IMG/VR virus record: IMGVR_UViG_3300045391_005020
Source of the DNA: a virus
Taxonomy: Duplodnaviria > Caudoviricetes
Length of the DNA: 64,000 bases
Reading direction: 5' to 3' (one strand)
A program made the translations under genes and the position numbers. Below the pieces are notes generated by a model, which was not told the DNA's origin, ran no database searches, and worked only from the letters and a program-made list of their open reading frames with translations. Positions 6,975 to 61,461 of this stretch are shown here, in pieces. How positions within the stretch are numbered: the first letter of the stretch is position 1; every line of letters starts with the position of its first letter.

Positions 6975-7064
6975 GTGGGTTTCCGTTGTTGGTTTGTACA
7001 ACCCACGATAGCCAGGTTTACTCGTAGTCAAGACAATGGACTTGACTCATATGTAAAAATAAGG

Positions 7065-7458: not shown

Positions 7459-7475
7459 ACTGTGGAACAATTCTT
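7459..7475. repeat. trailer arm of the 17-bp inverted repeat bracketing the tRNA region
   Basis: actgtggaacaattctt is the exact reverse complement of 18712-18728. Confidence 0.85.
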
Positions 7476-7479
7476 TAAG

Positions 7480-7550
7480 TGGCACAGCCCCCAGGTATTG
7501 CACCTGGCCCGCCGGATTTGGAGTTCGGCGCCTCCCTTGGAGAAGGCCAT
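7480..7550 (-). tRNA. tRNA-Trp(CCA), atypical short D-arm
   Basis: Anticodon loop CTCCAAA; T-arm CCAGG-TGCAATA-CCTGG; encoded CCA; weak acceptor stem. Confidence 0.7.
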
Positions 7551-7556
7551 ATGGAA

Positions 7557-7631
7557 TGGTCCGCGCACAGGGAATTGAACCCCGATTCCCTCCTTATCAG
7601 AGAGGTGTCCTGACCGTTGGACGATACGCGA
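7557..7631 (-). tRNA. tRNA-Ile(GAT)
   Basis: CCTCT-CTGATAA-GGAGG; TTCAATT T-loop; CCA. Confidence 0.85.
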
Positions 7632-7638
7632 GTGAAGA

Positions 7639-7713
7639 TGGTGCTCAGCCAGGGAATTGCACCCCAGTCCCACCCATACCAAGGGCGTGTACTGCTGACT
7701 GTACTAGCAGAGC
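7639..7713 (-). tRNA. tRNA-Thr(GGT)
   Basis: CGCCC-TTGGTAT-GGGTG; CCA. Confidence 0.85.
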
Positions 7714-7781
7714 GTGAAACAGCGTCGTAAAGCAAGCGCGTTGCTTCGTGACAATAGACTTGACCAGGACACGATGCGTGC

Positions 7782-8081
7782 GTGATCGATGAAGAATTTG
7801 TAATCGTCGACGGCTCTGTCGAGTCGCCCCTGTTGACCGCTGAGGAGGCTGCGGCCTATCTGCGCTGTCACCCCAAGACGCTTGGTAAGCGTGGGGTGCC
7901 ATATGTCGACCTGGGGCATCGATCACACTTCTACCGGAAAGAGGACCTCGATGCTTGGATCGCGCAGCGGCTCAAGAAGCCGCTCGCATCCGCGCCGGCG
8001 CGCGTGGATGTCCTGGCGCTCGAGCCCGTGCGCGAGTACCTGCCGAAGCGCCGGAAGCGCGCTACGAGTCGAGCTTCCTGA
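7782..8081 (+). CDS. excisionase-like HTH (MerR/HTH_17) protein
   Basis: LLTAEEAAAYLRCHPKTL...YRKEDLDAWI; convergent with the integrase; has its own promoter motif at 7751. Confidence 0.85.
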   Translation: MIDEEFVIVDGSVESPLLTAEEAAAYLRCHPKTLGKRGVPYVDLGHRSHFYRKEDLDAWIAQRLKKPLASAPARVDVLALEPVREYLPKRRKRATSRAS

Positions 8082-9396
8082 CCACTTCCCTGAACACCGT
8101 GCGCGACGGGTGCGCGTATCGCTCGGTGAGCTTCGTCGAGCTGTGTCCCATGAGTCCCTGGATGTGGTAGATGTCCACGTCCTTCTCGGTCAACCGGGTG
8201 GCGTACGTATGGCGCAGATCGTGGATCCTGAGCGTCGGTTTTCCGAGTTCCTCCCGGACTCGTTCCCACGCCTTGCGGAGCCCGACGGCCGGGCGTGGCC
8301 CGAACCGCTGTTCTTCCGCGGCGAGCCGCATCTTCACTGCTTCTTCGCGGGTCAAGAAAACCCCGAGGTACTTGGGGCGACCGCCGCGGCCACTCCCGAT
8401 CTCGGCGCGGTACCGGATGGCGCCGCCCTTCTGGCGCACCTTGCGGACGCCGAGGATTTGTCCGCCAGGAACCGATCGCTTCGGGAGCCGCGTGTTGCGC
8501 TCGCGATCGAGCCGAGACAGGGTGCCAGCGTGCCACGGAAAGATTGGCTCGGCGGCGCGGGCCTGGGCGACCTGCTTCAACTCCGCGACCGTGGCGACAC
8601 CGGCGCGACGCAGCAGCATGTCGATCGTTCGGTTCCGGAGCGGAACCTCGCGCATCTTATGGTTCTTGGTCACGTACCCCAGCAGACGCACGAACGGCTC
8701 GAGCTTCTCGGTGAACAGGATCGAGCTCCACGTGAGCGCCAAACCTTCACGCCGCCGCGCGCCCGTATCCATCAAGAGCATCGCGTAGTCGCGCAGGTCG
8801 GGCGTTGGCTCGCACAGCGCCAGCAACCGATCCGCTTCGGCCTCGCTCAGGGCCAGGTAGTTCGCAACCCCGACCGGCACCTTTTTGAATTCCGGAACCG
8901 GCATCCCGGCTCCCCAAAACTTGTTCGCGTACCGGCACACCACCGTGACGTTCATGAGCGTGGTGTTCACCGTGTTGGGGGCCAAGCCGGCCGCCAGCAT
9001 GGCGCGTTTGAAATCGCTCAGGCGCTCGGTGGTCACCGCGGTCAGCGGCGTCTTCTCGCCCAGGAACTCGACGATCCGGCCGAACAGAGACGCGCGGGTT
9101 GCCAAGGACTGCTTGTAGGGTCGATCGTGGTAGCAGGGGGCCACCACCTCGACCAGGTAGTCGTCGAACGCTTTCTTGACCGTCAGAGCCGAGCGCTCCG
9201 GCGGTGCCACGGTCACGGCCATGATCGGCACATGCTGGGCCTGGTCGCGCGCCGCCTTCCGGAGATTCACCTTCCACTCGTCCTCGAACTCGCGCGCGTC
9301 GTTCTTGGTCGGGAAGCCGCGCCGCGTGAAGCGTTGGTTCTTAAACTCGAACTGGACGTAGTAGGAATCGGTGCGTTTGTCGAAGCAGGCAGACAT
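8062..9396 (-). CDS. int: tyrosine integrase with an N-terminal arm-binding domain and an internal AP2-like insertion
   Basis: Catalytic motifs TGARRRE, TKN, HDLRH, MGHSS, TERY; N-terminal YYVQF...RRGFPTKNDARE. Confidence 0.93.
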   Translation of the reverse strand: MSACFDKRTDSYYVQFEFKNQRFTRRGFPTKNDAREFEDEWKVNLRKAARDQAQHVPIMAVTVAPPERSALTVKKAFDDYLVEVVAPCYHDRPYKQSLATRASLFGRIVEFLGEKTPLTAVTTERLSDFKRAMLAAGLAPNTVNTTLMNVTVVCRYANKFWGAGMPVPEFKKVPVGVANYLALSEAEADRLLALCEPTPDLRDYAMLLMDTGARRREGLALTWSSILFTEKLEPFVRLLGYVTKNHKMREVPLRNRTIDMLLRRAGVATVAELKQVAQARAAEPIFPWHAGTLSRLDRERNTRLPKRSVPGGQILGVRKVRQKGGAIRYRAEIGSGRGGRPKYLGVFLTREEAVKMRLAAEEQRFGPRPAVGLRKAWERVREELGKPTLRIHDLRHTYATRLTEKDVDIYHIQGLMGHSSTKLTERYAHPSRTVFREVVRKLDS

Positions 9397-9412
9397 GCTA
9401 TTTCTCCCATTG

Positions 9413-9765
9413 GTGTCACTACGGACTCACAGCACTTGGTCACCTGCAAGCCACCGTACCCCCTTTGGGTGCAATTCAAAATAGCGACTGATTGGTTTCG
9501 TTCGATGGTGTCATACACTCGGTATTTACCGATATTCTGTGCATTCCGTGCAGGCGATCCGATCATCGTAACAATAGATTTTAACCAGTGTTAAAACCCA
9601 TCTTTCGTAATTCAGATAGCCACGGTTCGATTAAATTCCCCAACCGCAGCCATTTGCACGACTTGTACCTAACAAAACCGTCTAGCTACTACTCCCGTTC
9701 GAAATCATAAAGGTAGTAAAAGGAGCGATGCGGACTCGCCGGTCACCTGCAAAGTCACCTGCAAA
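9413..9765. mobile_element. putative attP (arm-type repeats flanking an AT-rich core)
   Basis: GTCACCTGCAA at 9439-9449, 9742-9752 and 9754-9764; non-coding, immediately upstream of int. Confidence 0.6.
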
Positions 9766-9793
9766 CTACTGGGTTTATGGATGAAAAACGAAG

Positions 9794-9865
9794 TGCCCAA
9801 GAGAGGGATCGCACCTCCGACCTTTCGCTTACGAAGCGACTGCTCTACTGCTGAGCTACTCGGGC
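9794..9865 (-). tRNA. tRNA-Thr(CGT), no encoded CCA
   Basis: GTCGC-TTCGTAA-GCGAA; full cloverleaf. Confidence 0.85.
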
Positions 9866-9912
9866 GCATGGGCCGCATCGTGCTCAAACGACGCCACGCG
9901 TCTAGGGGTGAC

Positions 9913-9987
9913 TGGTGCCCACGGCCACGAATCGCACGAGCGTCTCCTGAGTACAAAACAGGTGTCCTGCTACTGGACGACGCGGGC
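9913..9987 (-). tRNA. tRNA-Thr(TGT)
   Basis: Anticodon loop TTTGTAC; CCA. Confidence 0.8.
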
Positions 9988-9993
9988 ATTGAA

Positions 9994-10069
9994 TGGACTA
10001 CGCGATCGGTGCTGCCCCGACTTGGTCCTGCTTGGAAGGCAGGCGATCTGCTAGATGACCCACGCGTAG
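9994..10069 (-). tRNA. tRNA-Gly(TCC)
   Basis: CCTGC-CTTCCAA-GCAGG; U73; CCA; T-loop GGCAGCA. Confidence 0.85.
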
Positions 10070-10076
10070 GTGAAAG

Positions 10077-10334
10077 TTAGATTGGTTCGCCGTGCAGCTG
10101 AATCAGCGCATGGCATCGATGGGTGAGTTCGAAGCACGCCATCGCGGTCTGGTTGGCGACCTCATGGGGAACGTAGAGACGACCCCGTTCGGGATCGAAG
10201 TGCGCGCCGCGCAGCCACGGCATCTCGGTTAGGATCGGAACACCGATCGCCATCAGCTCGTCGTAGGTGAGCCAGTACCGGTACGGCCAGCTCAGAGTGG
10301 CGGGTGCTTCAGGTGTCTCTTGGCCGTCGGGCAT
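10077..10334 (-). CDS. hypothetical protein
   Basis: 85 aa ORF inside the tRNA region. Confidence 0.5.
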   Translation of the reverse strand: MPDGQETPEAPATLSWPYRYWLTYDELMAIGVPILTEMPWLRGAHFDPERGRLYVPHEVANQTAMACFELTHRCHALIQLHGEPI

Positions 10335-10531
10335 GAGATCTGGAATCCGATCGGAGCCGGACGGTTCAGGATGTCGTCGTGGCGGGCTTCGTCTTCTTCG
10401 CGGGCGCAGCGAGCGGCCCGGATCTCGTTGATCAGGAACATGATGGCGGCTCCTACCAGGAAACCGGCCGCGAATCCGACGGAGAGTATGATTGGCACAC
10501 CCGGATCATAACGAGTCAAGTCTATTGTCAA

Positions 10532-10606
10532 TGGTGCTGGCCCAGGGAATTGAACCCCGGTCTGAGCGGTACGAAGGCCCTGTTCTGCTAACTAAACTAG
10601 GCCAGC
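10532..10606 (-). tRNA. tRNA-Thr(CGT), second copy
   Basis: Anticodon loop TTCGTAC; TTCAATT T-loop; CCA. Confidence 0.8.
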
Positions 10607-10660
10607 ATGGCGAGACAATAGATTTGACTGACAGTGTAATATTACATACAGTCGGCCGGT

Positions 10661-11431
10661 ATGCGTACCGCCCTCCTGCTGTTACTATTCGGAACTCTGT
10701 CGGCCGCGGTCCCGGGAATCCCTGAGCCGCCGGCGCCGGGCCCGATCCCGGAAGTGACGCTCGGGTGGTTCAACGACTGGCACGCGATCCCGACCACGCA
10801 CTCGGATGATCACCGGACCAACGCGTTCATCGTGGGGATCCGGATCGACGACTGGGTCTACCAAGTCGACGACTCGATGCTCACGTCGCGCGAGCTCGGG
10901 GTCAGGAACGACGAACTCTCGCTGACCGCAGGCTACATCATCGCGAACGACGAGTCGGCCTCGATCGTCCTCGGCGGCGGGGTTCGGCTCCGCGGAGACT
11001 ATGGCGGCGAGTCCACCCAGAACTGGTGGCATTCGCAGTGGCGCGATTACCCGGTCCACCTTGCGTACGAAGACTCGGTTCCGAGCCCGATTCTCTACAT
11101 GATGAATCACCTGCGGACGTTTCCGCTCAACGATCATTCGCTCGAGATCATCGCGGACGGTGAAGTCCTGTCGGACGCGCTCGCCGTCGATCTCGGGCTG
11201 CGCGACGTCGTGTTCCTGAATGACGCCGGTGACATCCGTATCTGGTTCGGCCCGCGCTGGCAGTTCCGCGAAGATTGGCAGGACAATCAGATCGGTCCCG
11301 AGATCGCTCGATTCGAACGAGGTCTCTGGATCGACTACGGGATCCAGATCGGTCACTTCAGCCTCGGAGAACGCCATGCGATCGGGCGCTCCGAAGGCAT
11401 GGGCACGATCAGCTGGAGCTGTGGATTCTAA
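10661..11431 (+). CDS. secreted outer-membrane beta-barrel, LpxR (lipid A deacylase)-like
   Basis: Signal peptide; NDW...SDDHRTNAF resembles the LpxR N-terminal ND...D..YT motif; amphipathic strands; C-terminal Phe; own promoter at 10615. Confidence 0.55.
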   Translation: MRTALLLLLFGTLSAAVPGIPEPPAPGPIPEVTLGWFNDWHAIPTTHSDDHRTNAFIVGIRIDDWVYQVDDSMLTSRELGVRNDELSLTAGYIIANDESASIVLGGGVRLRGDYGGESTQNWWHSQWRDYPVHLAYEDSVPSPILYMMNHLRTFPLNDHSLEIIADGEVLSDALAVDLGLRDVVFLNDAGDIRIWFGPRWQFREDWQDNQIGPEIARFERGLWIDYGIQIGHFSLGERHAIGRSEGMGTISWSCGF

Positions 11432-11598
11432 TGACCAAAGTACCTCTTTCGCCCTGGACGCGCCTCACGAGTCGCTCCGAACTGGAGTCTGACGCGCGCT
11501 ACTTCAAGCTGCTCGACGAAAACGGCCGGAAGCATCTGACCGCAGAAACAAAGAAGCGCATCGACGCACTCCGGATGATGTACGGCGACGACGCCTGA
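11431..11598 (+). CDS. small hypothetical protein (MTKVPLSPW...)
   Basis: TAATG coupling to the upstream gene. Confidence 0.5.
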   Translation: MTKVPLSPWTRLTSRSELESDARYFKLLDENGRKHLTAETKKRIDALRMMYGDDA

Positions 11599-11601
11599 TG
11601 A

Positions 11602-11679
11602 TGGTCGGCGCCGTGGGAGTCGAACCCACCTGTGACCGCTTATAAGACGGCTTGCGACTGAACCGGTCGCGTGACGCCA
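11602..11679 (-). tRNA. tRNA-Ile(TAT)
   Basis: GCCGT-CTTATAA-GCGGT; TTCGACT T-loop; A73; CCA. Confidence 0.8.
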
Positions 11680-11682
11680 CTG

Positions 11683-12468
11683 TTATGGTTCAGGGGCCCA
11701 GGTGACCGAGCTGAACTCGATGTGCCTGGTAGAGTCTGGATTCCAGACGTCGAACACTTTGACGCCGGTTCCTTCGTCCATCGGGATATAGGCGTCCGCG
11801 GCGCTCACGTTGGTGAGCGGGCTTGGCGGGTTCGACTGATACGTTACCGCATAGAAGTTTCGCATGTAACCGTTGATTCCCGGGTTGTCGTAGCCGACGC
11901 GCATCCCGAGGAGACCAGCGCCCGTCGTGATGTTCGCCCCGACTGTTCCAGAGACCACTGAGACTCCGTTGAGAAACACAGCCGTTACGCGAGACGTGTT
12001 GACGGTGATCCTGATTGTGTTCCACGCACCGAAGTTGAATAGACCGGGAGCTGAGCTGTTCTGGAAGGCTCCGCCCGCCCATTGTGCTTGCCAGCGCAAC
12101 GATCCGTCACCCATCACCCGTAACTCATACCCGTAATTTGAGACGTTCCACGGTGCCCCGAAAGAGAACAAGCCAGCGGATCCAGAGGCGTGATTGACTT
12201 CGAACTCCCACGTGCGGGCCTGGAGACCGCCGGCCGCGATGTGCCACATCGTGTTTCCGCGCCCGTAGAACGCCTGGTTGGTGCTGCCGAGGCTCTGGAG
12301 GTTGGTGTCGAACGGCCGATCGTAAATCGTTTCCGGCATGCGCCCGCCCTGGACGGCTTCAACATGCGAGAGAGCCTCGGTCTTCCGGAACCTGTCTTGC
12401 TCGATCTGGTTCTGCTGGCCAGCTGGAGTTCGACTCTTACCGTTGTCGGTTACGCGGAATTTAGGCAT
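11683..12468 (-). CDS. LamG/concanavalin-like domain protein
   Basis: WNTIRITV...VFLNGVSV...INGYMRNF...PMDEGTG beta-sandwich pattern. Confidence 0.6.
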   Translation of the reverse strand: MPKFRVTDNGKSRTPAGQQNQIEQDRFRKTEALSHVEAVQGGRMPETIYDRPFDTNLQSLGSTNQAFYGRGNTMWHIAAGGLQARTWEFEVNHASGSAGLFSFGAPWNVSNYGYELRVMGDGSLRWQAQWAGGAFQNSSAPGLFNFGAWNTIRITVNTSRVTAVFLNGVSVVSGTVGANITTGAGLLGMRVGYDNPGINGYMRNFYAVTYQSNPPSPLTNVSAADAYIPMDEGTGVKVFDVWNPDSTRHIEFSSVTWAPEP

Positions 12469-12506
12469 ACCACAGAGTTTATGGTTGCCATGTCGGCATA
12501 CTAGGG

Positions 12507-12582
12507 TGGCGTCGCGGGGTGGGCTCGAACCACCAGCCTCCAGCTTCGGAGGCTGGTGCTCGTCCGATCGAGCTGCCGCGAC
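12507..12582 (-). tRNA. tRNA-Arg(CCG)
   Basis: CCAGC-CTCCGAA-GCTGG; CCA. Confidence 0.9.
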
Positions 12583-12586
12583 AAAA

Positions 12587-12661
12587 TGGAACGCATGCTG
12601 GGAATCGCACCCAGATCCTCTCGCTGGCAGCGAGACGTCTTAGCTGTTAGACGACACACGC
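12587..12661 (-). tRNA. tRNA-Gly(GCC)
   Basis: TCTCG-CTGCCAG-CGAGA; U73; CCA. Confidence 0.9.
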
Positions 12662-12667
12662 GTGAAA

Positions 12668-13096
12668 CTAAAGAAGCGGAAGCTGTCCCGTCACGGGATC
12701 GATCTCGTGGTCCCAGTGTGGACCGATCGCCAGACACGTCTTGGTCGGAACCCCGTTGAACTCGGTGAGGCCGCGGTCTTCGATCAGATGACACCGTAGC
12801 CCACGAGCCTTCGCGGCCAGCTCGATGTCGAGCAAGGCCTGCTCGGACTCAACGTAGCAGCAGATCTTCCGGAAGTTGCCGAAGTACCAGGCTTGCTCGG
12901 CCGGATCCAGGAAGATCCCGTCGAGCTCGATTTTGACGTCGTTGTCCTTCAGGCCTGGACGGCTCTCGCGCGGCCCGAACACTTTGAGCATCAGGGCTGC
13001 GATGCTGGCATGAGATCCCTGAGCGATCATCTTACCCTTGCGCATATTGAGGTCCTTGCGGACCACGATCACTTGCTTAACCGAGTTGACTGACAT
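12668..13096 (-). CDS. pth2: peptidyl-tRNA hydrolase type 2
   Basis: KQVIVVRKDLNMRKGKMIAQGSHA, IEDRGLTEF, TCLAIGP, IDPVTGQLPLL. Confidence 0.95.
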   Translation of the reverse strand: MSVNSVKQVIVVRKDLNMRKGKMIAQGSHASIAALMLKVFGPRESRPGLKDNDVKIELDGIFLDPAEQAWYFGNFRKICCYVESEQALLDIELAAKARGLRCHLIEDRGLTEFNGVPTKTCLAIGPHWDHEIDPVTGQLPLL

Positions 13097-13135
13097 GGCA
13101 GCACTGTACAGAGTCCTTGTTGGGTTGGAAGGAAA

Positions 13136-13212
13136 TGGTCCGCCGCGTAGGACGTGCGCCTACATCCCCCGGTTAAGAGCCGGGTGCATCTGTCTGTTTA
13201 TGCTTGCAGCGA
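13136..13212 (-). tRNA. tRNA-Lys(CTT)
   Basis: CCCGG-CTCTTAA-CCGGG; CCA. Confidence 0.9.
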
Positions 13213-13218
13213 ATGAAG

Positions 13219-13293
13219 TGGTTGACCACCACGGGGTCGATCCGTGTTCCCTCGGTTAAAAGCCGAGTGCATCAGCCCTAATGCTTGTGATCT
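13219..13293 (-). tRNA. tRNA-Lys(TTT)
   Basis: CTCGG-CTTTTAA-CCGAG; CCA. Confidence 0.88.
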
Positions 13294-13299
13294 GTGAAA

Positions 13300-13373
13300 T
13301 GGAGGCGCGAGGAGGAATCAAACCTCCGTGGACAGGGTTGCAATCTGCCGCCTGGTCACTCGGCCATCGCGTC
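13300..13373 (-). tRNA. tRNA-Cys(GCA)
   Basis: Anticodon loop TTGCAAC; U73; CCA. Confidence 0.88.
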
Positions 13374-13470
13374 TTGAAAAGTAAAGGGTGCCCGTTCTTC
13401 CTATTGGTAGAAGAACGGGACTTGTTGGTGTCACGCGTGATGACACCACGGGTACGGTCGTCCGGCCCAG

Positions 13471-13758
13471 TCAGGCGACTTCTGGAGTTCGCTGCTCCGG
13501 GAGACCGAGGAACGCATTGCGCATGTTCTCGATGCGCGACTCTGGCGACCGGTGCGCCGTCGGCTTACCGCGGATCACAAGCGAGAGGTCGTGAAGGGTG
13601 CTGATCAGGAGCGCGTTGTAGTGCGCCTGAGACTGCGCGACGCGAGCTGCGTTGCTCACGTGTGGCTCGTGCGTGACCGCCTTGAAGGCGACCTGCATGG
13701 CAACGAGCTTCTTGAGCTCGCACCGTATTTTGTAGACGTCGTCGGAGATCTGGGACAT
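13471..13758 (-). CDS. hypothetical protein
   Basis: 95 aa with an AAAGG SD. Confidence 0.55.
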   Translation of the reverse strand: MSQISDDVYKIRCELKKLVAMQVAFKAVTHEPHVSNAARVAQSQAHYNALLISTLHDLSLVIRGKPTAHRSPESRIENMRNAFLGLPEQRTPEVA

Positions 13759-13761
13759 TGG

Positions 13762-14097
13762 TTACCTTTCAGGATTCCAGAGTTTGTGGTGACGAAACAG
13801 TTTCCTGGCCTCGCCCGAGATGGGCGCGGTCGCGAGCGCGGTAGCGGCGTTGCCGATATCGGGCTCTCGGAAGAGAGTGAGAGGAATGCCGGCCCCGGTG
13901 AGCCGCTCAGCTTCCTGGAGAAGCTCGAGCTCAGACGGGACACCGATCACGATCAGGTGGCTGATCTGGTCGGTCTGGTACGGGTGGAGGAGTGCGACCT
14001 CGTGGGTCGCGTGGGCAGCCTGAACAAGCTGCTGGGCCAATGGCAGGTCTAGCCTGACAAGGCAGTAGACGTAGCCGGGTAGCTAGGCGTTCTTCAT
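13762..14097 (-). CDS. Pth2-like (PTRHD1-type) protein with an in-frame amber codon at codon 5
   Basis: ATG AAG AAC GCC TAG CTA CCC... reads MKNA*LPGYVYCLVRLDLPLAQQLVQAAHA...FREPD...TALATAP; VRLDL and QAAHA match the Pth2 motifs VRKDL and QGSHA. Confidence 0.8.
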
Positions 14098-14138
14098 GGT
14101 AACGATTTCACCAAGCTGACCAGGGCGGTCAAGGCTAT

Positions 14139-14372
14139 TCAATCTTCGTAATCCAGCTTCTGGAGCTCGTCCAGATCGCGGTCACTCAGGTGCTCTTCGG
14201 GCGAGGGCGTGTTCAGCAAGGTGACGCCGTTGATCGCGGTCACGTGCTTCATGTAGCGCTTCAGGAGCTCTTTGTAGTCGGGCTCAGCCTGCTGGACCAT
14301 AACGGCAAGCCGGTTATTCGACTTACCGATCTGGCGCAGGTTGGCTTTGAAGGTATCGGACGCTTTAGTCAT
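14139..14372 (-). CDS. hypothetical protein
   Basis: 77 aa with an AGGAG SD. Confidence 0.65.
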   Translation of the reverse strand: MTKASDTFKANLRQIGKSNNRLAVMVQQAEPDYKELLKRYMKHVTAINGVTLLNTPSPEEHLSDRDLDELQKLDYED

Positions 14373-14384
14373 GGCTGGCTCCTA

Positions 14385-14460
14385 TGGTGCCCCCGGTGGG
14401 ATTCTCGCCCACAACCGCCGGGTTTAGAATCCGCCGCTCTTGATATTGAGCTACGGGGGC
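14385..14460 (-). tRNA. amber suppressor tRNA (anticodon CTA)
   Basis: Canonical spacing: GCCCCCG acceptor, GCTC/GAGC D-stem, GCGGA-TTCTAAA-CCCGG, GTGGG/CCCAC T-stem, A73, CCA. Only 3 Watson-Crick pairs in the anticodon stem. Confidence 0.75.
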
Positions 14461-14517
14461 ATGGGGGACTATGGCACAATATAACGCCACAGTCAAGGCC
14501 ATTGTCACGAATCGGAC

Positions 14518-15411
14518 CTACTCCTGGCCCTCGCGCTTGTATTCATTCATCTTACTGATCTTCAGGTTGACCTCTTCGACTGCCTGCTTCTTCTGCTTGG
14601 TCTTGGCACCTTTACGGGCGCTGGCAGAGCGTTCGTCGATCATGCGGTCTCTGGTGTTGCCGAGCAGGTCCTCGGTGGCGCTGAACAGACGCTTAACCGA
14701 TTTGTCTTCGCGCCACTGCTCTATCGCCCAGGTGCAGTTCCAGTAGTTGTCGCTGGAGCCCGAACCGATGCGATCACCCAGCACCGCGTTGCGGAGGACC
14801 AAGATCGGACTGCCTTCAGGCAGATCCGTGCCGGCCAGGTATGAGTCGATGAACTCCTCGGCCTTCCGAGGATAGAAGTGATGGAAAACCACCATTGCCG
14901 CCGCGATGGTCGCGCGGGTTAAACGAGCACGTTTCGTGTTGAATTTCCCGGTCACGAACTCGAACGACGCAGACATCTTGAGGAAAGTGTCCTCGAGTTC
15001 GTCGATCGTCGGGCGGTGGTGGACGCCGGTGCACTTCAGATACTGGCTAACGATCTGATTGCAGAGACGGTTATGGGCCGGGTCATTCAGAAGTTTGAGG
15101 CACTCGAAGCTGGTACGATTGCGACCGCGGTCCGTATGCTTAGCGATTTCAGGACTACCGCCGCGCATGACGTACATCCACTGCCCTTTGCCAGTAATGA
15201 CGATCGCGGCGAGTCGGTGTTGGCCGTCGAGTACTTCACCGTCTTTACCGATGCAGATACCCTGATGGGTCGTCATGAACTCATCGTTCATAATAAGCCG
15301 GACGAAGTAATCGGTATTGGCCGGCGTCATCGGGCGCGCGTTGTTGTGGTTGTGGTTTTTTAGCAAGTCCTCGGCTATTTCCTTGGACACGTATTCTCGG
15401 TTGTACGACAT
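14518..15411 (-). CDS. ParB N-terminal-like domain protein
   Basis: NARPM...THQGICIGKDGEVLDGQHRLAAI. Confidence 0.65.
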   Translation of the reverse strand: MSYNREYVSKEIAEDLLKNHNHNNARPMTPANTDYFVRLIMNDEFMTTHQGICIGKDGEVLDGQHRLAAIVITGKGQWMYVMRGGSPEIAKHTDRGRNRTSFECLKLLNDPAHNRLCNQIVSQYLKCTGVHHRPTIDELEDTFLKMSASFEFVTGKFNTKRARLTRATIAAAMVVFHHFYPRKAEEFIDSYLAGTDLPEGSPILVLRNAVLGDRIGSGSSDNYWNCTWAIEQWREDKSVKRLFSATEDLLGNTRDRMIDERSASARKGAKTKQKKQAVEEVNLKISKMNEYKREGQE

Positions 15412-15525
15412 AGGATCTTTCCCGCCCGCTGTGGGCCATTTCGTAGACAGTGTAAATTCGCGTTACCGAGGCCAAATATACGAGCTGTTGCACACAGTCA
15501 AGATCATTGTATTGATCGTACTAAA

Positions 15526-15603
15526 TGGTCGGGATGGCGGGATTTGAACCCACGATCTCCTGGTCCCAAGCCAGGCGGAGTAACCAGACTCTCCTACACC
15601 CCT
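15526..15603 (-). tRNA. tRNA-Pro(TGG)
   Basis: CCTGG-CTTGGGA-CCAGG; CCA. Confidence 0.9.
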
Positions 15604-15610
15604 ATGAAAA

Positions 15611-15687
15611 TGGTCAGAGTGGTTGGATTTGAACCAACGATCTCCTGGATCCGAACCAGGCAGAATACCAAGCTTTCCCACACTCTG
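15611..15687 (-). tRNA. tRNA-Pro(CGG)
   Basis: CCTGG-TTCGGAT-CCAGG; CCA. Confidence 0.92.
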
Positions 15688-15692
15688 AAAAA

Positions 15693-15767
15693 TGGCGCCC
15701 CCACGCGGTGCTGCCCCGCGCTCTCCTGATAGACAATCAGGCGTCTTAGCTGATGGACGATGAGAGC
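15693..15767 (-). tRNA. tRNA-Asp(GTC)
   Basis: CCTGA-TTGTCTA-TCAGG; G73; CCA. Confidence 0.88.
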
Positions 15768-15771
15768 AAAA

Positions 15772-15865
15772 GCCCGCGCTTTATTCGACCGCCTTCGCGG
15801 CCACCCGTTCAACCGACGGGCAGGTCAGCCTTACGGCTGCGCGGAACCTGATTGCCTTGCGGCAC
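15772..15865 (-). ncRNA. candidate small structured RNA with GNRA hairpins
   Basis: TGCC-GCAA-GGCA; CAGGT/ACCTG enclosing CAGCC-GTAA-GGCTG; CCCGT/ACGGG. Confidence 0.45.
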
Positions 15866-15868
15866 GAA

Positions 15869-15943
15869 TGGTGGATCCGAGGTGACTCGCACACCTATCC
15901 CTCTGCTTGCAAAGCAGCCGCTCTTCTTTGGAGCTACGAACCC
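15869..15943 (-). tRNA. tRNA-Ala(TGC)
   Basis: Anticodon loop TTTGCAA; G3:U70; CCA. Confidence 0.9.
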
Positions 15944-15965
15944 GAAAAACATGCAGATAACGCGC

Positions 15966-16062
15966 TGGTTCCCGCGGCCTATTGATTTGCTATTCCGCCC
16001 GGACGGGAGCGGTTGCTGGCTCGAGCACAGCGGCGGCGTGTTACCAATTACACTAACCGGAG
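15966..16062 (-). ncRNA. degenerate tRNA-like RNA with an expanded anticodon arm
   Basis: D-arm GTGT-AATTGGTA-ACAC; CCGCC...GGCGG enclosing an insertion; ends ACCA; T-arm degraded. Confidence 0.35.
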
Positions 16063-16234
16063 CAACCCGGCCGGGCGTCGAACCCGATTTCCGCAAGAGG
16101 TGACCGCTCCATGCCTGGTACGGGTTGAGCGCGATCTCGAGCAGCGCTGCAGCGTGGCTCGATGTTTCGCTCGGTCATTCTCGTCCTAAGGGGACGGGTG
16201 GCCCGTAGAGGATTTGATCCTCAGCGATCATGAA

Positions 16235-16311
16235 TGGAGGGAGAAGGCGGAATCGAACCGTCTTGCGAGCGCGCCCGCATCGAGCCCAGGTATCCCTGTT
16301 CGAATTCTCCC
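16235..16311 (-). ncRNA. tRNA-like RNA with no anticodon loop
   Basis: GGGAGAA/TTCTCCC acceptor, GACGG-TTCGATT-CCGCC T-arm, U-CCA; the middle arms are non-canonical. Confidence 0.65.
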
Positions 16312-16316
16312 ATGAA

Positions 16317-16405
16317 TGGCGGGGTGAGATGGGTTCTATACCACCGACCTCTCATTGGCCGACATTGCTGTCGGCGAATAAGTGCTCTCGCTGAGCTACC
16401 ACCCC
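16317..16405 (-). ncRNA. tRNA-like RNA with the anticodon loop replaced by a GCAA-capped hairpin
   Basis: GCTC-AGCGA-GAGC D-arm; CTTAT-TC-GCCGACA-GCAA-TGTCGGC-CA-ATGAG; CCA. Confidence 0.65.
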
Positions 16406-16470
16406 AAAGAGGATCCGTCGGTCACGAACACTGATGAGGTGCTCGATTCGGTCATCAGCCGACCGACGGC

Positions 16471-16813
16471 GTTAAGTTGTTTGAAGCGAGCTCGAGTGAG
16501 GGGTTACAATTCCCTGACTTATCTCCGCAATCACGTATTCGACCATCCTGCCTCATCCGTGCCCGAACGGCCGTTCGGGACACCGGGTCAACAGCAGGAG
16601 GAGGACTCTCACCTCCACACGCTCGCCTTCTAGTCGTTATATTTGGCTACCAAGCGTGGCTCTCGAGTTGCGCACCGATGAACACCCAATGCGTCTCGAT
16701 CGTCGTCTTGCGCTTTCGCGTTCTTTCGTACCTCTTTATGTTCTCAAGAGTGCCTTGGTCCCCGAAGGACGGGTTGGCTCGGCCACACGCGGGCGCGCTT
16801 CAATCAACTTAAC
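16471..16813 (-). ncRNA. large structured ncRNA (~340 nt) closed by a long terminal helix
   Basis: GTTAAGTTGATTGAAGCGCGC pairs with GCTCGCTTCAAACAACTTAAC; many internal hairpins; preceded by boxA and a promoter motif; no credible ORF. Confidence 0.65.
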
Positions 16814-16820
16814 AAACTGG

Positions 16821-16832
16821 ATTTCAAAGATC
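16821..16832 (-). promoter_or_regulatory. boxA-like antitermination site
   Basis: GATCTTTGAAAT just downstream of the promoter motif at 16864. Confidence 0.6.
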
Positions 16833-16884
16833 GAAGCACAGATAATCCGGTCCCGGCCATGATAGTCAAGGCCATTGTTATGAT

Positions 16885-16961
16885 TGGTTGCGAGTCTTGG
16901 AATTGCACCAAGCTACTTGGCTTATGAGACCAGGCAGGATCTATCTCCTGTCGAACTCGCA
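16885..16961 (-). tRNA. tRNA-Met(CAT) (could be Ile2 if lysidine-modified)
   Basis: Anticodon loop CTCATAA; CCA. Confidence 0.8.
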
Positions 16962-16966
16962 TTGAA

Positions 16967-17042
16967 TGGTACGCGACGATGGATTCGAACCACCGGTCTT
17001 CTCGATGTCACCGAGTTGCTCTGGCCGCTGAGCTAGTCGCGT
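16967..17042 (-). tRNA. tRNA-Val(GAC)
   Basis: Anticodon loop GTGACAT; TTCGAAT T-loop; CCA. Confidence 0.9.
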
Positions 17043-17047
17043 ATGAA

Positions 17048-17122
17048 TGGTGGTCAGCCAGGGACTCGAACCCTGATTCTCCGGGTGTAGGCCGGGCGTT
17101 CTTGCCGTTGAACTAGCCGACG
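17048..17122 (-). tRNA. tRNA-Val(TAC)
   Basis: Anticodon loop CCTACAC (C33); CCA. Confidence 0.85.
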
Positions 17123-17127
17123 ATGAA

Positions 17128-17201
17128 TGGCACCCACTGATGGAATTGAACCACCGCCTGAACGTTCGTAGCGTCCCGGTCTTCCGTTAGCCTAAGCGGG
17201 C
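17128..17201 (-). tRNA. tRNA-Arg(ACG)
   Basis: GGACG-CTACGAA-CGTTC; CCA. Confidence 0.88.
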
Positions 17202-17224
17202 GTGTCCCTACCTGCGCAGGGAAA

Positions 17225-17299
17225 TGGTACTCGGTCAGGGTTCTGCCCCCTGTTCTCGCGGATGAAAGCCGCGGATCTTAGCTAGTGGACGAACCGAGC
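17225..17299 (-). tRNA. tRNA-Glu(TTC)
   Basis: CGCGG-CTTTCAT-CCGCG; CCA. Confidence 0.88.
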
Positions 17300-17304
17300 A
17301 TGAA

Positions 17305-17380
17305 TGGGCCAAGAGACCGGATTCGCACCGGCATCACGGGAGACACAATCCCGCATCCTCACTGTTGGACGACTCTAGGC
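17305..17380 (-). tRNA. tRNA-His(GTG)
   Basis: CGGGA-TTGTGTC-TCCCG; G-1 and C73; CCA. Confidence 0.9.
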
Positions 17381-17385
17381 ATGAA

Positions 17386-17460
17386 TGGGTGACCCGCGAG
17401 GATTCGAACCTCGAGCAGCGAGATCCAAAGTCTCGCGTTCTACCATTGAACTACAGGTCA
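17386..17460 (-). tRNA. tRNA-Gln(TTG)
   Basis: CGAGA-CTTTGGA-TCTCG; U1-A72; CCA. Confidence 0.9.
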
Positions 17461-17614
17461 GTGAAAAAGGTCAGGCGCTCTTCCGGGTTAAGCTAGCAAG
17501 ACAAGGGCCTGGGCGCATGGCGTCGATCGCCGCTTCCGCGCTGTTCCGCGAGTGTCGTCGAGGCCTCGACGACTGCTCTTCTTGGACGGGATTCGAACCC
17601 GCATCTCCTGAGAG

Positions 17615-17689
17615 TGGTAGTCCTACTGTGTGCTGCCCACAGTTTGTCCGGCTGAGAACCGGGTGTACTAGCTGGTGTACGATAGGACC
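17615..17689 (-). tRNA. tRNA-Glu(CTC), nested in a second tRNA-like frame
   Basis: CCCGG-TTCTCAG-CCGGA; CTGTG-GGCAGCA-CACAG; CCA. Confidence 0.8.
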
Positions 17690-17784
17690 AAGAAAAAGGA
17701 GTCGGCCAGGTCAGCTGGCATTGATATCTGCGTAGGTCGGAATACCCGGCGCACCGGGGCGACATCGCATACGACTCCGAAGAT

Positions 17785-17860
17785 TGGCGGCGCCGACAGG
17801 ACTCGAACCTGTCGCCTTCCCGTTAGGACCGGGACGCTCTACCGGATGAGCTACGGCGCT
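17785..17860 (-). tRNA. tRNA-Arg(CCT)
   Basis: TCCCG-GTCCTAA-CGGGA; CCA. Confidence 0.9.
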
Positions 17861-17900
17861 CTGACCGCGCGCACGAAATGTGGCTCGCGCGCACGGAATG

Positions 17901-17974
17901 TGGCTGGACCGGAGGGATTCGAACCCTCACGCCCGCGTTTAGAAGGCGCGGCTCTGATCCGATCAGGCGGTCCC
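17901..17974 (-). tRNA. tRNA-Arg(TCT), atypical D-arm
   Basis: CGCGC-CTTCTAA-ACGCG; TTCGAAT T-loop; G73; CCA. Confidence 0.75.
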
Positions 17975-18028
17975 GAAACTTGACACATGAGCCAGAATTC
18001 GTCTGCTCTGACCCGAAAGGATTTACTC

Positions 18029-18268
18029 ATGCCCATGAGTCGAGCAGGACGGGCCGCGGTCGCGGCAGCAGCCAAGAAGCGTTGGAGGCTGATCAAGGCT
18101 GGAAAGATCCGGAAGCCGAAGGTCGGCCGCAAGGCCGGCGGACGCAACAGTGCAAAATTATCGATCAAGTCGTCCGGTCAGTCCGGGCTCAAAGAAACCG
18201 TGAAGGCGTTGAAACAGCTCGGGGCCGCGGCGGGATGCCGGGTCGAAGTGACGCTCGTCCCGAAGTAG
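18029..18268 (+). CDS. small basic nucleic-acid-binding protein
   Basis: MPMSRAGRAAVAAAAKKRW motif; Lys/Arg-rich. Confidence 0.55.
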   Translation: MPMSRAGRAAVAAAAKKRWRLIKAGKIRKPKVGRKAGGRNSAKLSIKSSGQSGLKETVKALKQLGAAAGCRVEVTLVPK

Positions 18269-18580
18269 TTACTTGGTCCAGTGAGGGGTGTTAAGCATCA
18301 TCGCATGCGCCTCGGTCTGGATATCGCTGAACTCGCGCTCACTCATTCCGGACTTGATGGCCTCGATCTGGAGTCTCGCCAACAGAGCGGCTGCGAGGCC
18401 TAGGCAGGTCTTGAGTGGACCGCGATGGAAGGTTCCGAATAGGGCCTCGTTGGTCCCGGTCGTCTCGTCTTGTTTGACCATCGAGATCACGCACGCGATT
18501 CCGCGGCTCTGGAGCTCCGAGATCAATTCGCGATCGGGTACGAGTTTCAGATTCATGACGGTTTTGTAGCCAGACCGCAA
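18269..18580 (-). CDS. hypothetical protein (similar N-terminus to 27465-27788)
   Basis: NL..VPD.ELI.EL.SR..ACVI pattern shared between the two. Confidence 0.55.
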   Translation of the reverse strand: MRSGYKTVMNLKLVPDRELISELQSRGIACVISMVKQDETTGTNEALFGTFHRGPLKTCLGLAAALLARLQIEAIKSGMSEREFSDIQTEAHAMMLNTPHWTK

Positions 18581-18597
18581 TGCGATCCAGCCAGAAA

Positions 18598-18671
18598 TGG
18601 CAGCCAGGCAGGGAATCGAACCCCGATATCGTGGTTAACAGCCACGTGTAATACCGTTATACGACCCGACT
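18598..18671 (-). tRNA. tRNA-Asn(GTT)
   Basis: CGTGG-CTGTTAA-CCACG; G73; CCA. Confidence 0.92.
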
Positions 18672-18711
18672 AAATGTCGGCCGTCCTCGACCTCTGCCGA
18701 GGACGGCCCAC

Positions 18712-18728
18712 AAGAATTGTTCCACAGT
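18712..18728. repeat. leader arm of the 17-bp inverted repeat
   Basis: aagaattgttccacagt, complementary to 7459-7475. Confidence 0.85.
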
Positions 18729-18734
18729 ATAGAG

Positions 18735-18748
18735 TTTTCAAAGACAGC
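18735..18748 (-). promoter_or_regulatory. boxA-like antitermination site at the head of the tRNA region
   Basis: GCTGTCTTTGAAAA versus the consensus TGCTCTTTAACA. Confidence 0.65.
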
Positions 18749-18977: not shown

Positions 18978-19507
18978 TCACTTGGAAGTCAAGCTAACGG
19001 GCGAGTTCTTCCAGACGCCGCGGATACTGGTGGCGATCCAGACAACCTGCAGTGCCACAATCGCCCACGCGCTGGTCTCCCAGCCATAGATGGCCAAGAA
19101 AATGTCGCTGACGATGAACCACACGAAGCCCCACATGCGGGTGCGGGAGACCTGGCTGGCGACCAACAGGGCGCCGAGCAAACCGGCCGCGGCAGCCGGC
19201 CACTGGCACAAGAGCGCGATGTCGTGCCAGGTCACTTCTGGAGTCCTCGGCGGGCTTGTTCGATCAGGTACTGAACCATCCTCGGATCGAACGCGGCGAT
19301 AAATCTCCGGATCTCATTCGCTTCCGGTCTTGATGGGCTCACTTCACATACCGAACCGTCGTCCTCGCCATGATATTCATGGCGCTCCTCGAGGTACACG
19401 CGCTCTTGCTGATCCTGCGACTGCGCGAGACGCCAGTCGCGATCGTGCACTGCTGAACAGATGTTCTCCAGCCAATCGAGTTCTTGAGCCGACAACAAGT
19501 CTTCCAT
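18978..19507 (-). other. two small genes: membrane protein (18978-19235) and hypothetical (19232-19507)
   Basis: Three TM-like segments in the first; coupled ORFs. Confidence 0.55.
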
Positions 19508-24340: not shown

Positions 24341-24391
24341 GTGCCCCTACATCGTGCAGAAATTTACCAGCAGTCAACCCTATTGTTACGA

Positions 24392-32572: not shown

Positions 32573-35153
32573 CTTCCGGAATTGCTTTCGTGCGGGCTTC
32601 GAAGCCGCAGTTGGGACAGAAGTTCACTTGGGACCCGAACTCGCCATTCTGGACCCACAGGGTTCCATTCGGCTCTTCCTCGCAGTGGGTCACGGCCTGG
32701 CCCCAGTAACCTGGGTGCGCGGGGAAGTTGAGTCGGCAGTAGTGCTGCTCCGCGGGCCAGTTCACTTGTCCGACACCCGCGGACCTTTCTCTTCGTCGTA
32801 GAACTGAGCGGTGTTGGTCGTGGTGACTCGCATCGGCGGCGCCGGCTTCATGTCGATCACGGGGCCATGCGTGGACGGAACGGCGCCACAGCCTTGGCAG
32901 ATTGGGGTCGGTGGGATGACGCCATGCCACACCGACGGGACCGCAACGGCTCCTCCGCAGATGGAGCACGTGCCGATTACGCGGTCGTACATTGCTCTGC
33001 TTTCGCGCGCTCACGATTCCGCGCCACGAGCTCTCTGGTGATTTCCAGGTTGGCTCCGGCGAGCCTCATGTGGTGAAGTAAGACGTCCGATGAACCGGCA
33101 GAGAAGTGCCGGGCCATCCTGAGTGCTTCGATCGCAGCTTCGAGGAAGTGGTCAGCGAGCCTGAGCTCGCCGTCCGTAGGGTAGGATTGGGGCATCCCAA
33201 GACTGTAACAGGCAAGTCACACAGTCAAGGCCATTGTTACGATCCAGCCACGCGGCCAACCACACGCTCAATCGTCGAGCGGCTTGTCCCTAGGCTCCCA
33301 AGTGACCGTGCCCTCGACCAGGATCTTGTCGCGCTCGACATCGATGTTGAAGTGAGCGACGTGGGGTCGGTGATTCGGCGGCCCCTCGTACCACTGATCG
33401 CAGATCCGGAGCCGCATCCCGCCCTTGAAGCTCAAGAGCGAGAAGCACTCTTCCCAGTGGTCGCTCATCCGTTCCAGGGCCTTCCGGGATCGCTCGGGCC
33501 TTTCCGGATCCAGTGGGGCAGCGGAGCGCGAGCGAGTCTGATCAGACTGAGCCGGGTATTCCGGGCGTGCCAGTCCATGCACTGGTACATGTCGCCGTCC
33601 CGGTCGGCATCCGGGTACTGCTTGTGCAGGTAGTCCAGGATCCTGAACGCTTCGGTCCACAAGGCCCGTTCACGGAACTGTTGGCGGATTCGTCTTATCA
33701 GGTTGAACATAGGGTTTGGGCGGCTGGGTTCGCAGGATGAACTTCCACCAGGACCGGAGCTTCCGGATGTCGCTCAGCGCGACTCCCTTGGGGATTTTGA
33801 TACGCCGCACAGCCAGAACTGTATCACAACCTCGGCGTAGGCAAGTCTATTGTAACGATCTGAACTTACGTAAAAACCAATTGAGGAAGCGGGGTCGCCG
33901 GCGCTCGCGATTGAGCCGGTCCAGCTCGGCGAACTCGGCCTCGAGTCTGGCCCGAGCCAGCTCGAGCTCACGGGCGTCTTCCGGGGAGAGGGGGCGGTAC
34001 TTCATGCGATCAGGTATTTCTGACCGGTCGCTACGACGACCCATTGGGTCACCGGGTCGAAGCCGCCGTACCGAACCACATAGACGTAGTCGTCTGGCAT
34101 GATGAGCGTGAACGAGGACTCGCCGGTCACAGGATCTCGGCGGCAAACCCAGCCGTCCATGTCGGGGAATTCGCGTTTGAGTTCGGCCAGGATCTTCTGC
34201 GCGACCTTGGCGTCACGCGTGTCCATATCCTGGTTCTCGCACTGTTTGACCATCGCGTGGAGGCGATCCAGGATGTCGCACGGCGGCGCGTTATGCTGGC
34301 CTTCGGCGGCACCGGCGATCGCGCAGCAGAACACCAGCAGGAAACTAACCAGAGTACGCATCAGGTGTCGAAGATGCGCGCGGTGACGTCGGCGAGATCT
34401 ACTTTGACGCCCAGCTTGGTCTTCTCATCGCGGCCAGCGGCGCCGCAACCGGTGCAGTGAGTTTCGAAGTAGAAAAGTGACGGTGCGTAGACGTTGCCAA
34501 CCCAGTGGTCGTAGTGGCGTCTGTAGTCATTGATCTCGATAGAGCGGTAGGTGGATCTTTGGGTACGCTTGAACGCGGTGCAGCCGCAGAACTGACACTC
34601 CTGCGGGGCGTCGAAATCTATGAGTCGACTTTCCCAGGCAACCAAGTCGCGGTGCATTGCTTGCCGGTAGTTCTCGATTTTCTGTTCGACTGTCTTGGAG
34701 GGCTCGGCGTCTTCGGTCACGGCCTCGATCTTCTGATCGAGTTCGGCCACGAGGGCTTCGCGGAGCTCTGATTCCACCTGTTTCTCGGACTTACTGAATG
34801 GCCACATGGTTAACCTTTCTGGACCGGGTGCCGCTTGCAGCGCTTGCGAGTGCACTGGTACTCGACGCGCGAGGGACCGTAGGCGCCGCCTCGTCCGCCG
34901 AGGTACATGACGGTCTCGCACGGATGCGGTTCACGAATCTTGGTCCACCAGTATTTGGGACGCTTCGGTTTCATGGCTTCTCGTACGTCATGGTGACGCG
35001 CGCCACGGTCACGTCGTCATCGGTGGTGAAATCGGTCTCAAGGGCGCACTGTGCTGATTCTTCGTCATCGTAGAGCACCGTGCTCGGCTCACCGCCGAAC
35101 AGGACAACCCAGCGCTCGACTGTGACCATAACCGGTTTGCGTTTCTTCGGCAT
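32565..35153 (-). other. run of small hypothetical genes, several with CxxC pairs
   Basis: Coupled ORFs downstream of promoter motifs at 33223 and 33839. Confidence 0.45.
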
Positions 35154-61053: not shown

Positions 61054-61461
61054 AAGTGTCCTTGGGGGAAGTTGTGCCCCCAAGGATCACGATTTTTACC
61101 AGTAGTCAAGTCTATTGTCTTGATCTTACCTACGTAGGGAACCCCTAGACGGGCGGGTTCGGGGCGATGTAGTTGGGGTCGAGGTTCGACGGGTCGGCCA
61201 GAAATACGTCCAGGTCCTCGATCGTGAAGTCCTCGAGGTGTCCTTCGTGGTCGCACTCGTAGCACCGAGCGTAGCTCCTATCGCCCCATTCGACGTCACC
61301 GTAGCTGTCGGTGCCGTCGTCGCTGACGTCCATTAGACAGGTGGACTCGATCAGGAGTCGGCGACGGTTCCCGCATTTTGGGCAGGCCTTGTCGGTCAGG
61401 CAGTTGTCGTTCCGCTTGATCTTCTCGACCGGCCCAAATTTCTGGACGAACTCTTCCGGGG

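Follow-up and report, generated by a model that had tools for sequence, protein, structure and literature searches.

Complementary arms and a boxA-boxC leader, in the order seen in bacterial rRNA operons, bracket the tRNA island of a large phage

The transfer RNA (tRNA) island described here lies in a 64,000-nt stretch of DNA (the window) from the Caudoviricetes record IMGVR_UViG_3300045391_005020, and it is bracketed by two complementary 17-nt arms: a leader arm, ACTGTGGAACAATTCTT (18728-18712, minus strand), which is located after a boxA-like element and before the first tRNA, and its perfect complement, the trailer arm AAGAATTGTTCCACAGT (7475-7459, minus strand), which is located after the last tRNA. 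These positions, given in an earlier note made from the sequence alone, were confirmed, with 11,236 nt between the two arms. The signals in front of the island follow the order and spacing of those in bacterial ribosomal RNA (rRNA) operons (rrn), and both arms are kept in a relative, which is represented by a groundwater contig of 213,586 bp (Hainich; ENA ERZ1292619). The phage thus probably borrows the rRNA transcription machinery of its host for its tRNAs. We favor a reading in which an rrn-type antitermination leader is combined with a leader-trailer helix formed in the RNA, and we assign it a probability of roughly 0.55; the leader component by itself is likely, and pairing of the arms in cis stands at even odds or slightly better. 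tRNA islands are frequent in large phages; to our knowledge, how their long untranslated tRNA arrays escape Rho and get processed is largely unknown.

All tRNA genes of the island reside on the minus strand. The first of them is Asn-GTT (18671-18598), and the last one called by default tools is Ile-GAT (7631-7557). Beyond the latter lies a 71-nt Trp-CCA element (7550-7480, minus strand), which was missed by default ARAGORN and by Rfam, and was found only at a relaxed ARAGORN threshold. It folds into a cloverleaf with a miniature D arm (3-bp D stem, 3-nt D loop), and this cloverleaf is kept in the relative (locus L092, ∼12575-12646) through compensatory changes in the acceptor and T stems. The CCA of this element (7482-7480) is followed by CTTA and then by the trailer arm, which bears out the 4-nt distance from the last CCA that had been proposed.

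Perfect 17-mer inverted repeats are not rare as such in 64 kb of this composition, and the window contains five unrelated perfect 16-mer inverted repeats, which speaks for a chance origin of the arms; it is their location at both island ends that is remarkable. As a null set, we used 24 other phage tRNA islands, namely IMG/VR loci that carry Pth2 and five or more tRNAs in one orientation, taken from a Pth2 search of IMG/VR that returned relatives at ≤56% identity only. Comparing the 150 nt ahead of the first tRNA with the 150 nt behind the last one gave a longest perfect complement of 5-10 nt in 24/24 of these islands, versus 17 nt here and 14 nt in the relative. Moreover, of 3197 minus-strand windows, none formed a better duplex with the leader than the trailer did. 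Given arms that sit at the island ends and are kept in the relative, against 5-10 nt in the null islands, a chance repeat is very improbable.

Reading the minus strand from position 18992, the region in front of the island comprises, in order, a promoter, a structured leader, hairpin 1, boxA, the leader arm, a boxC-like element, hairpin 2, and tRNA-Asn. The promoter, P1 (TTGACT-16 nt-TATCTT; 18992-18965), was found by a consensus scan and is of the sigma70 type, and the leader between it and hairpin 1 (∼170 nt) is structured (z = -5.4). Hairpin 1 (18786-18760), read from the sequence, has an 11-bp stem and a CAAAA loop, occupies the boxB position, and is terminator-like. The boxA-like element TCTTTGAAAA (18744-18735) represents one of the two exact copies of TCTTTGAAA in the 64 kb, both of which are on the minus strand. 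The boxC-like element TCTTGTGGG (18715-18707) overlaps the 3' end of the leader arm and is spaced 20 nt from TCTTTGAAA, while hairpin 2, an inverted repeat (18712-18675), lies between the arm and tRNA-Asn. Rfam contains no family matching this leader. Another promoter candidate, picked by eye as TTGAAA...AATTCT, was dropped, as the second boxA-bearing unit described below does not fit it.

We then examined how closely this arrangement follows that of bacterial rrn leaders. The published boxA of Escherichia coli is GYTCTTTAANA (PMC5725501), and the published boxC, UCUGUGUGGG, is found 18-19 nt past boxA, where it forms part of the 5' strand of the leader-trailer helix (PMC10250234). A strict pattern, TCTTTGAAAA-N(16-22)-TCTNTGTGGG, was searched in one genome per species across 185,579 prokaryotic species. 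This yielded 73 matches, most of them scattered, with a conspicuous cluster in Anaerobiospirillum, where the TCTTTGAAAA 10-mer is the boxA of the rrn leaders. In four Anaerobiospirillum loci, Rfam places the 16S start 75-115 nt downstream of the pattern, which indicates that boxA-N(16-22)-boxC is a real rrn leader signature. The leader of the relative matches the strict pattern exactly, its boxC, TCTTTGTGGG (9/10, within the two mismatches to UCUGUGUGGG allowed for a boxC), being located 20 nt past TCTTTGAAA. When aligned, the phage and rrn leaders have in common (i) a hairpin, (ii) boxA, (iii) an ACAAT before boxC, which is shared even though it lies outside the search pattern, (iv) boxC itself, and (v) a hairpin right after it. 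From this alignment, we take the leader arm to be the counterpart of the strand that carries boxC in the leader-trailer helix of rrn operons.

The likeness extends beyond the individual signals. The phage shares with the boxB-boxA-boxC leaders of bacterial rrn operons the order promoter, hairpin, boxA, ∼20 nt, and boxC; as in the pre-16S helix, boxC belongs to the 5' strand and the 3' strand lies past the enclosed RNA; and both types of leader have a further hairpin after boxC and an untranslated enclosed transcript. The phage arrangement differs from its bacterial counterpart in that its bracket spans 10-11 kb of tRNAs, protein genes, and an integrase rather than a 1.5-kb rRNA, that its helix comprises 14-17 bp compared with 25-40 bp, and that its boxA is a G8 variant residing in a phage; also, Nus binding and RNase III cutting, unlike in rrn, are predictions for the phage leader. 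The analogy with rRNA operons drawn in the earlier note is thus partly supported. It is strengthened by a boxC-like element at rrn spacing within the 5' arm and by the promoter, hairpins, boxA, and arm pair being kept in the relative, while the extension of the pairing toward boxA, which is discussed below, is not supported.

The relative was found through a 374-aa protein encoded next to the leader, for which a search of 5.8 billion proteins gave a single homologue (47-49% identity). Its locus L092 contains the whole syntenic island at ∼70-75% DNA identity, with the same first tRNA, the same opposite-strand cassette, Pth2, an integrase/excisionase (int/xis) pair in the same place, and a Thr-Ile-Trp-like end. 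Both promoter hexamers, hairpin 1 including its stem, boxA, and the 18 nt from boxA on are identical in the two leaders, whereas the promoter spacer differs and the upstream part of the leader is much less conserved; a scan flags the relative's copy of hairpin 1 as terminator-like. The leader arm of the relative, ACAGTGGAACAATTCTTT, differs by one change and an additional T. In hairpin 2, the stem differs in sequence there but is still paired, three of its pairs having changed on both sides. At the other end, the CCA of the Trp-like element is followed by TTC and then by CAAAGAATTGTTCC, such that the helix begins 3-4 nt past the CCA in both phages, and the arms occupy the same two positions, 10,266 nt apart.

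The core common to both phages measures 12 bp in the leader (GGAACAATTCTT, 18723-18712) and 13 nt in the trailer, where it consists of the complement. In the relative, the helix has 14 bp, being extended by a U-A and a G-C pair at the boxC end; here, it has 17 bp, with five additional base pairs at the other end. When local hairpins and the tRNA-like element were included, the helix was part of the minimum-energy dimers of both phages, with a free energy gain (ddG) of -23.8 kcal/mol here and -15.6 kcal/mol in the relative. The trailer block AAAGAATTGTTCC (7476-7464, minus strand) is identical at 13/13 positions, although it is located between the diverged tRNA-like element and a 48-nt indel. 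The latter stretch (7463-7416, minus strand), which the alignment shows to be absent from the relative, holds the last 5 nt of the arm as well as weak extra complementarity, and past this gap the alignment resumes at a conserved motif ahead of a small open reading frame (ORF).

This conservation bears on the possibility that the arms are a relic, either of a captured host rrn leader and trailer or of an inverted duplication, with no present role beyond boxA antitermination. The leader does resemble real rrn leaders in sequence, and a weak inverted similarity over ∼45 nt here is what a decayed duplication might leave, although beyond the 17 bp this similarity is marginal, with 53/2000 shuffles giving an equally good local alignment. 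However, a trailer block that stays perfect with an indel on one side and a diverged tRNA-like element on the other, in genomes that are ∼70% identical, would be unexpected if the arms were neutral, and we regard a relic as quite unlikely.

The earlier note had further proposed that pairing extends imperfectly toward boxA. Indeed, AAACTC (18737-18732) can pair with GGGTTT (7457-7452), and a cofold of the two ends extends the helix to AAACUC/GGGUUU, GGCUG/CAGCC, and CGUUUC/GGAAACG, leaving the UCUUU of boxA unpaired. This extension is not significant, as 149, 336, and 101 of 1000 shuffles matched the energy of the leader-extension duplex for three leader segments, and the stretch concerned is missing from the relative. 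For both reasons, we do not count it as evidence.

Several observations weigh against the favored reading. First, there was no compensatory double change at any arm position in the two phages (n = 2), so that the comparison yields paired conservation and no covariation; the T-to-A change at 18726 lacks a partner, since the corresponding trailer segment is missing in the relative. The search of related phages for inverted repeats with compensatory changes, as the earlier note had advised, thus recovered both arms in one relative, without compensatory changes. Second, the conserved helix is AU-rich and comprises 12-14 bp, which is below the >17 bp needed by the E. coli 16S leader-trailer helix (PMC10250234). 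Third, the boxA, TGTCTTTGAAA, agrees with the E. coli consensus at 8/11 positions (off at positions 1, 2, and 8), a consensus that may not be that of the host, and TCTTGTGGG is boxC minus one base. Fourth, hairpin 1 is terminator-like and upstream of boxA, and the GTGGG of boxC doubles as the 5' strand of hairpin 2. Finally, the 11 kb contain internal promoters on both strands, two opposite-strand units, and the int/xis pair, and many of the tRNAs, having such internal promoters, need no 11-kb transcript.

A second unit within the island repeats the design on a smaller scale, which bears out what had been noted for 16471-16832. Behind a promoter at 16869-16842, a boxA-like TCTTTGAAA (16830-16822) is followed after 8 nt by the 5' arm GTTAAGTTGATTGAAGCG (16813-16796), which pairs with a 3' arm at 16488-16471 (all minus strand) over 18 bp with one A.A mismatch, and the two arms are paired in the minimum-energy fold. 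They close an unclassified RNA of ∼305 nt (16795-16489, minus strand), for which Rfam gave no match. The second unit is absent from the island of the relative. The sequence of its helix is unrelated to that of the first, which indicates that the shared element is the layout, and helices of unrelated sequence in a shared layout favor an RNA design over a sequence-specific DNA site.

The latter point concerns an alternative in which the arms are inverted-repeat DNA sites, with the integrase of the island flipping the 11 kb relative to the promoter and leader. Indeed, 0.3-0.6 kb from the trailer arm there is an integrase gene whose HxxR...Y region is intact, together with an excisionase-like gene, and the pair is found at the same place in the relative. 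However, the arms (12-17 nt) are not palindromic and lack the dyad symmetry of a recombinase core site; the integrases of the two phages are 30% identical, whereas the arm cores are identical; and all contigs that cross either arm, from five assemblies of the relative and from this phage, show one orientation, albeit in a small sample. Further, a HMMER search with the integrase over 1.84 billion representatives gave homologues of which the two best, when checked, were bacterial chromosomal and not from phage tRNA islands, as for ordinary integrative elements, and the leader arm is already accounted for by its match to the rrn boxC. Inversion is accordingly improbable: with a single orientation, no dyad symmetry, and both arms in the relative, the repeats do not appear to be inversion sites and are kept as a pair, in line with the earlier note. 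A word-based search missed the integrase of the relative.

Transcription signals within the island can be read in favor of either one long transcript or several short ones. The phage has a promoter family consisting of ATCGTnACAATnnnCTTGACT, ∼17 nt, and TACAGT, with minus-strand copies at ∼10529, 14506, 15511, and 16879 and plus-strand copies at 7032, 7750, and 10614. This family has an unusually long conserved upstream part and occurs in >15 copies in the window, mostly on the minus strand; copies were also noted at 10515-10529, 14492-14506, 24373-24386, 33224-33237, and 61105-61118, while some, such as those at 7032 and 7750, face the opposite way or lack a -10 element. On the side of read-through, tRNA-Thr(CGT) (10606-10532) lies directly behind the opposite-strand cassette and has no promoter of its own in scans of either phage, and it therefore needs read-through transcription; the last three tRNAs here have no obvious promoter. 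Moreover, a scan found no strong minus-strand intrinsic terminator from the leader to 7091. A terminator-like site at 11572-11553 was dropped, as it falls within the coding part of an ORF on the other strand. A strong intrinsic terminator with an 11-bp stem and a T run is present at 7091-7064 (minus strand), ∼370 nt past the trailer arm and behind a 73-codon ORF, and it has a conserved counterpart in the relative (L092, 12989-13016). This terminator is probably the end of the unit.

The internal promoters are also what would be needed if the arms paired between separate RNAs, namely, if a leader cut from tRNA-Asn by RNase P and capped by hairpin 2 acted in trans on the trailers of transcripts from internal promoters. 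It might there guide processing of the tRNA-Trp-like element at its 3' end, or trailer decay. Such promoters would give trailer-bearing RNAs without the leader, the leader is highly structured, and the helix begins 3-4 nt behind the CCA in both phages. A stable leader fragment is, however, purely hypothetical, and the rrn-like boxA-boxC layout indicates pairing in cis during transcription. We therefore consider pairing in trans unlikely.

Under the favored reading, host RNA polymerase would start at the sigma70-type promoter (18992-18965), and the nascent leader would offer a hairpin, boxA, and boxC in rrn order and spacing. Host NusB/NusE together with NusA, NusG, SuhB, and S4 would then bind boxA, and the Nus-bound polymerase, resistant to Rho and to terminators, could cross ∼11 kb of mostly untranslated tRNA DNA, including the antisense genes. 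With boxA held at the RNA exit channel, the leader arm and the boxC within it would be on hand as the trailer emerges 3-4 nt past the last tRNA, and the two arms could pair and thereby close the precursor. What the helix might do is speculative: it may mark or protect the complete precursor, or it may give an entry site for a double-strand nuclease. Cutting by RNase III, which the earlier note had raised, is possible but doubtful; the 17 bp and flanks here might allow it, whereas the 14 bp of the relative are short for RNase III and make it questionable there. The helix might also free the leader from the polymerase ahead of the terminator at 7091-7064. A bolder version, which we hold to be somewhat unlikely, is that the whole host rRNA complex, including its role as an RNA-looping chaperone, makes a 10-11-kb tRNA super-operon whose ends are joined cotranscriptionally, with the helix as a completion signal that releases the leader from the polymerase and restores termination 370 nt further on. 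In that case, no other leader-trailer helix would come close to spanning such a distance.

As for what the arms enclose, the earlier description as 11 kb of tRNA genes needs correction: the island is a mosaic and not a pure tRNA array, as it also includes the integrase and excisionase, protein genes, and opposite-strand genes. The tyrosine integrase (8062-9396, minus strand), assigned by protein-family matches, has an inserted domain at residues ∼300-372 that matches HNH-endonuclease PHROGs, and the HTH_17 excisionase-like gene (7782-8081, plus strand) is convergent with it. This int/xis pair thus resides inside the tRNA island of a jumbo phage, and the pair in the same place in the relative is only 30% identical. 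Mid-island, the opposite-strand cassette (10661-11598, plus strand), which is kept in the relative, has its own promoter (10624-10652) and consists of a 256-aa gene of no known family (10661-11431, plus strand), for which codon-position G+C shows a real frame, and of a small ORF next to it. Other protein genes within the island encode a lectin-fold protein (11683-12468), Pth2 (12668-13096), and a 297-aa protein (14518-15411), with small ORFs besides.

Three further features concern the tRNAs themselves. An amber-reading tRNA with the anticodon CUA (14460-14385, minus strand) scores 50 bits against the Rfam tRNA model and has its own TTGACT-17-CATAGT promoter. Two tRNA-like elements with CCA ends (16405-16317 and 16311-16235, minus strand) received no tRNA call from default ARAGORN or Rfam. 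Between tRNA-Ala and tRNA-Pro, a noncoding stretch of 79 nt (15770-15692, minus strand; L092, 4444-4521) is 98.7% identical in the two phages, compared with ∼72% around it. The window, which has a G+C content of ∼60%, codes for RtcB, Pth2, a DUF932 protein, and an AAA ATPase with phage-family matches, and this gene set, together with the size of the parent record (∼214.9 kb), identifies the phage as a jumbo phage.

Database searches recovered the arrangement in no further phage. Among the phages in GenBank, megablast and blastn detected nothing beyond short matches to tRNAs or Pth2, and tblastn with the neighboring proteins gave no close match. IMG/VR searches seeded with the 374-aa and 297-aa proteins and with an alignment returned no related locus; the closest homologue of the 297-aa protein resides in an unrelated 40-kb temperate phage and was set aside, as were three exact matches to the 17-mer in IMG/VR, which are AT-rich and attributable to chance. 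A metagenome scan with a boxA-arm pattern found the same Hainich phage plus chance matches in coding sequence only, and of two strict boxA-boxC patterns run over 2.9 million IMG/VR contigs, one found nothing and the other a single coding-like match without tRNA genes. Since the 24 other islands show no end complementarity, the bracket is lineage-specific in the present data.

The literature library searched contained work on rrn and lambda and on the T7 boxA, but nothing on a phage tRNA island that is bracketed by a boxA/boxC leader and a trailer helix. In T7, early promoters are followed by a boxA antitermination element (Savalia et al. 2010, in PMC3709561), so that a host-type boxA stands behind host-polymerase promoters without a lambda N-type protein, as in this phage; no boxC-bearing leader-trailer helix is reported for T7, and the T7 unit is not a tRNA island. 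The nut sites of lambda (boxA-boxB, with N protein) share with the role proposed here the use of boxA and Nus factors for long-range read-through. Unlike lambda, this phage has the rrn-like order of hairpin then boxA, no N-like protein was identified in it, and a closing helix is present.

If the favored reading is true, it would extend the rrn antitermination complex from rRNA to a mobile tRNA island, and from 1.5-3 kb to >10 kb. The island would offer a compact, mutable test system for the model in which a boxA tether holds boxC until the trailer emerges. Furthermore, the signature of boxA, ∼20 nt, boxC, and a complement past the last tRNA would serve to find RNA operons that depend on host polymerase in uncultivated phages, and it may perhaps be usable to infer the hosts of such phages.

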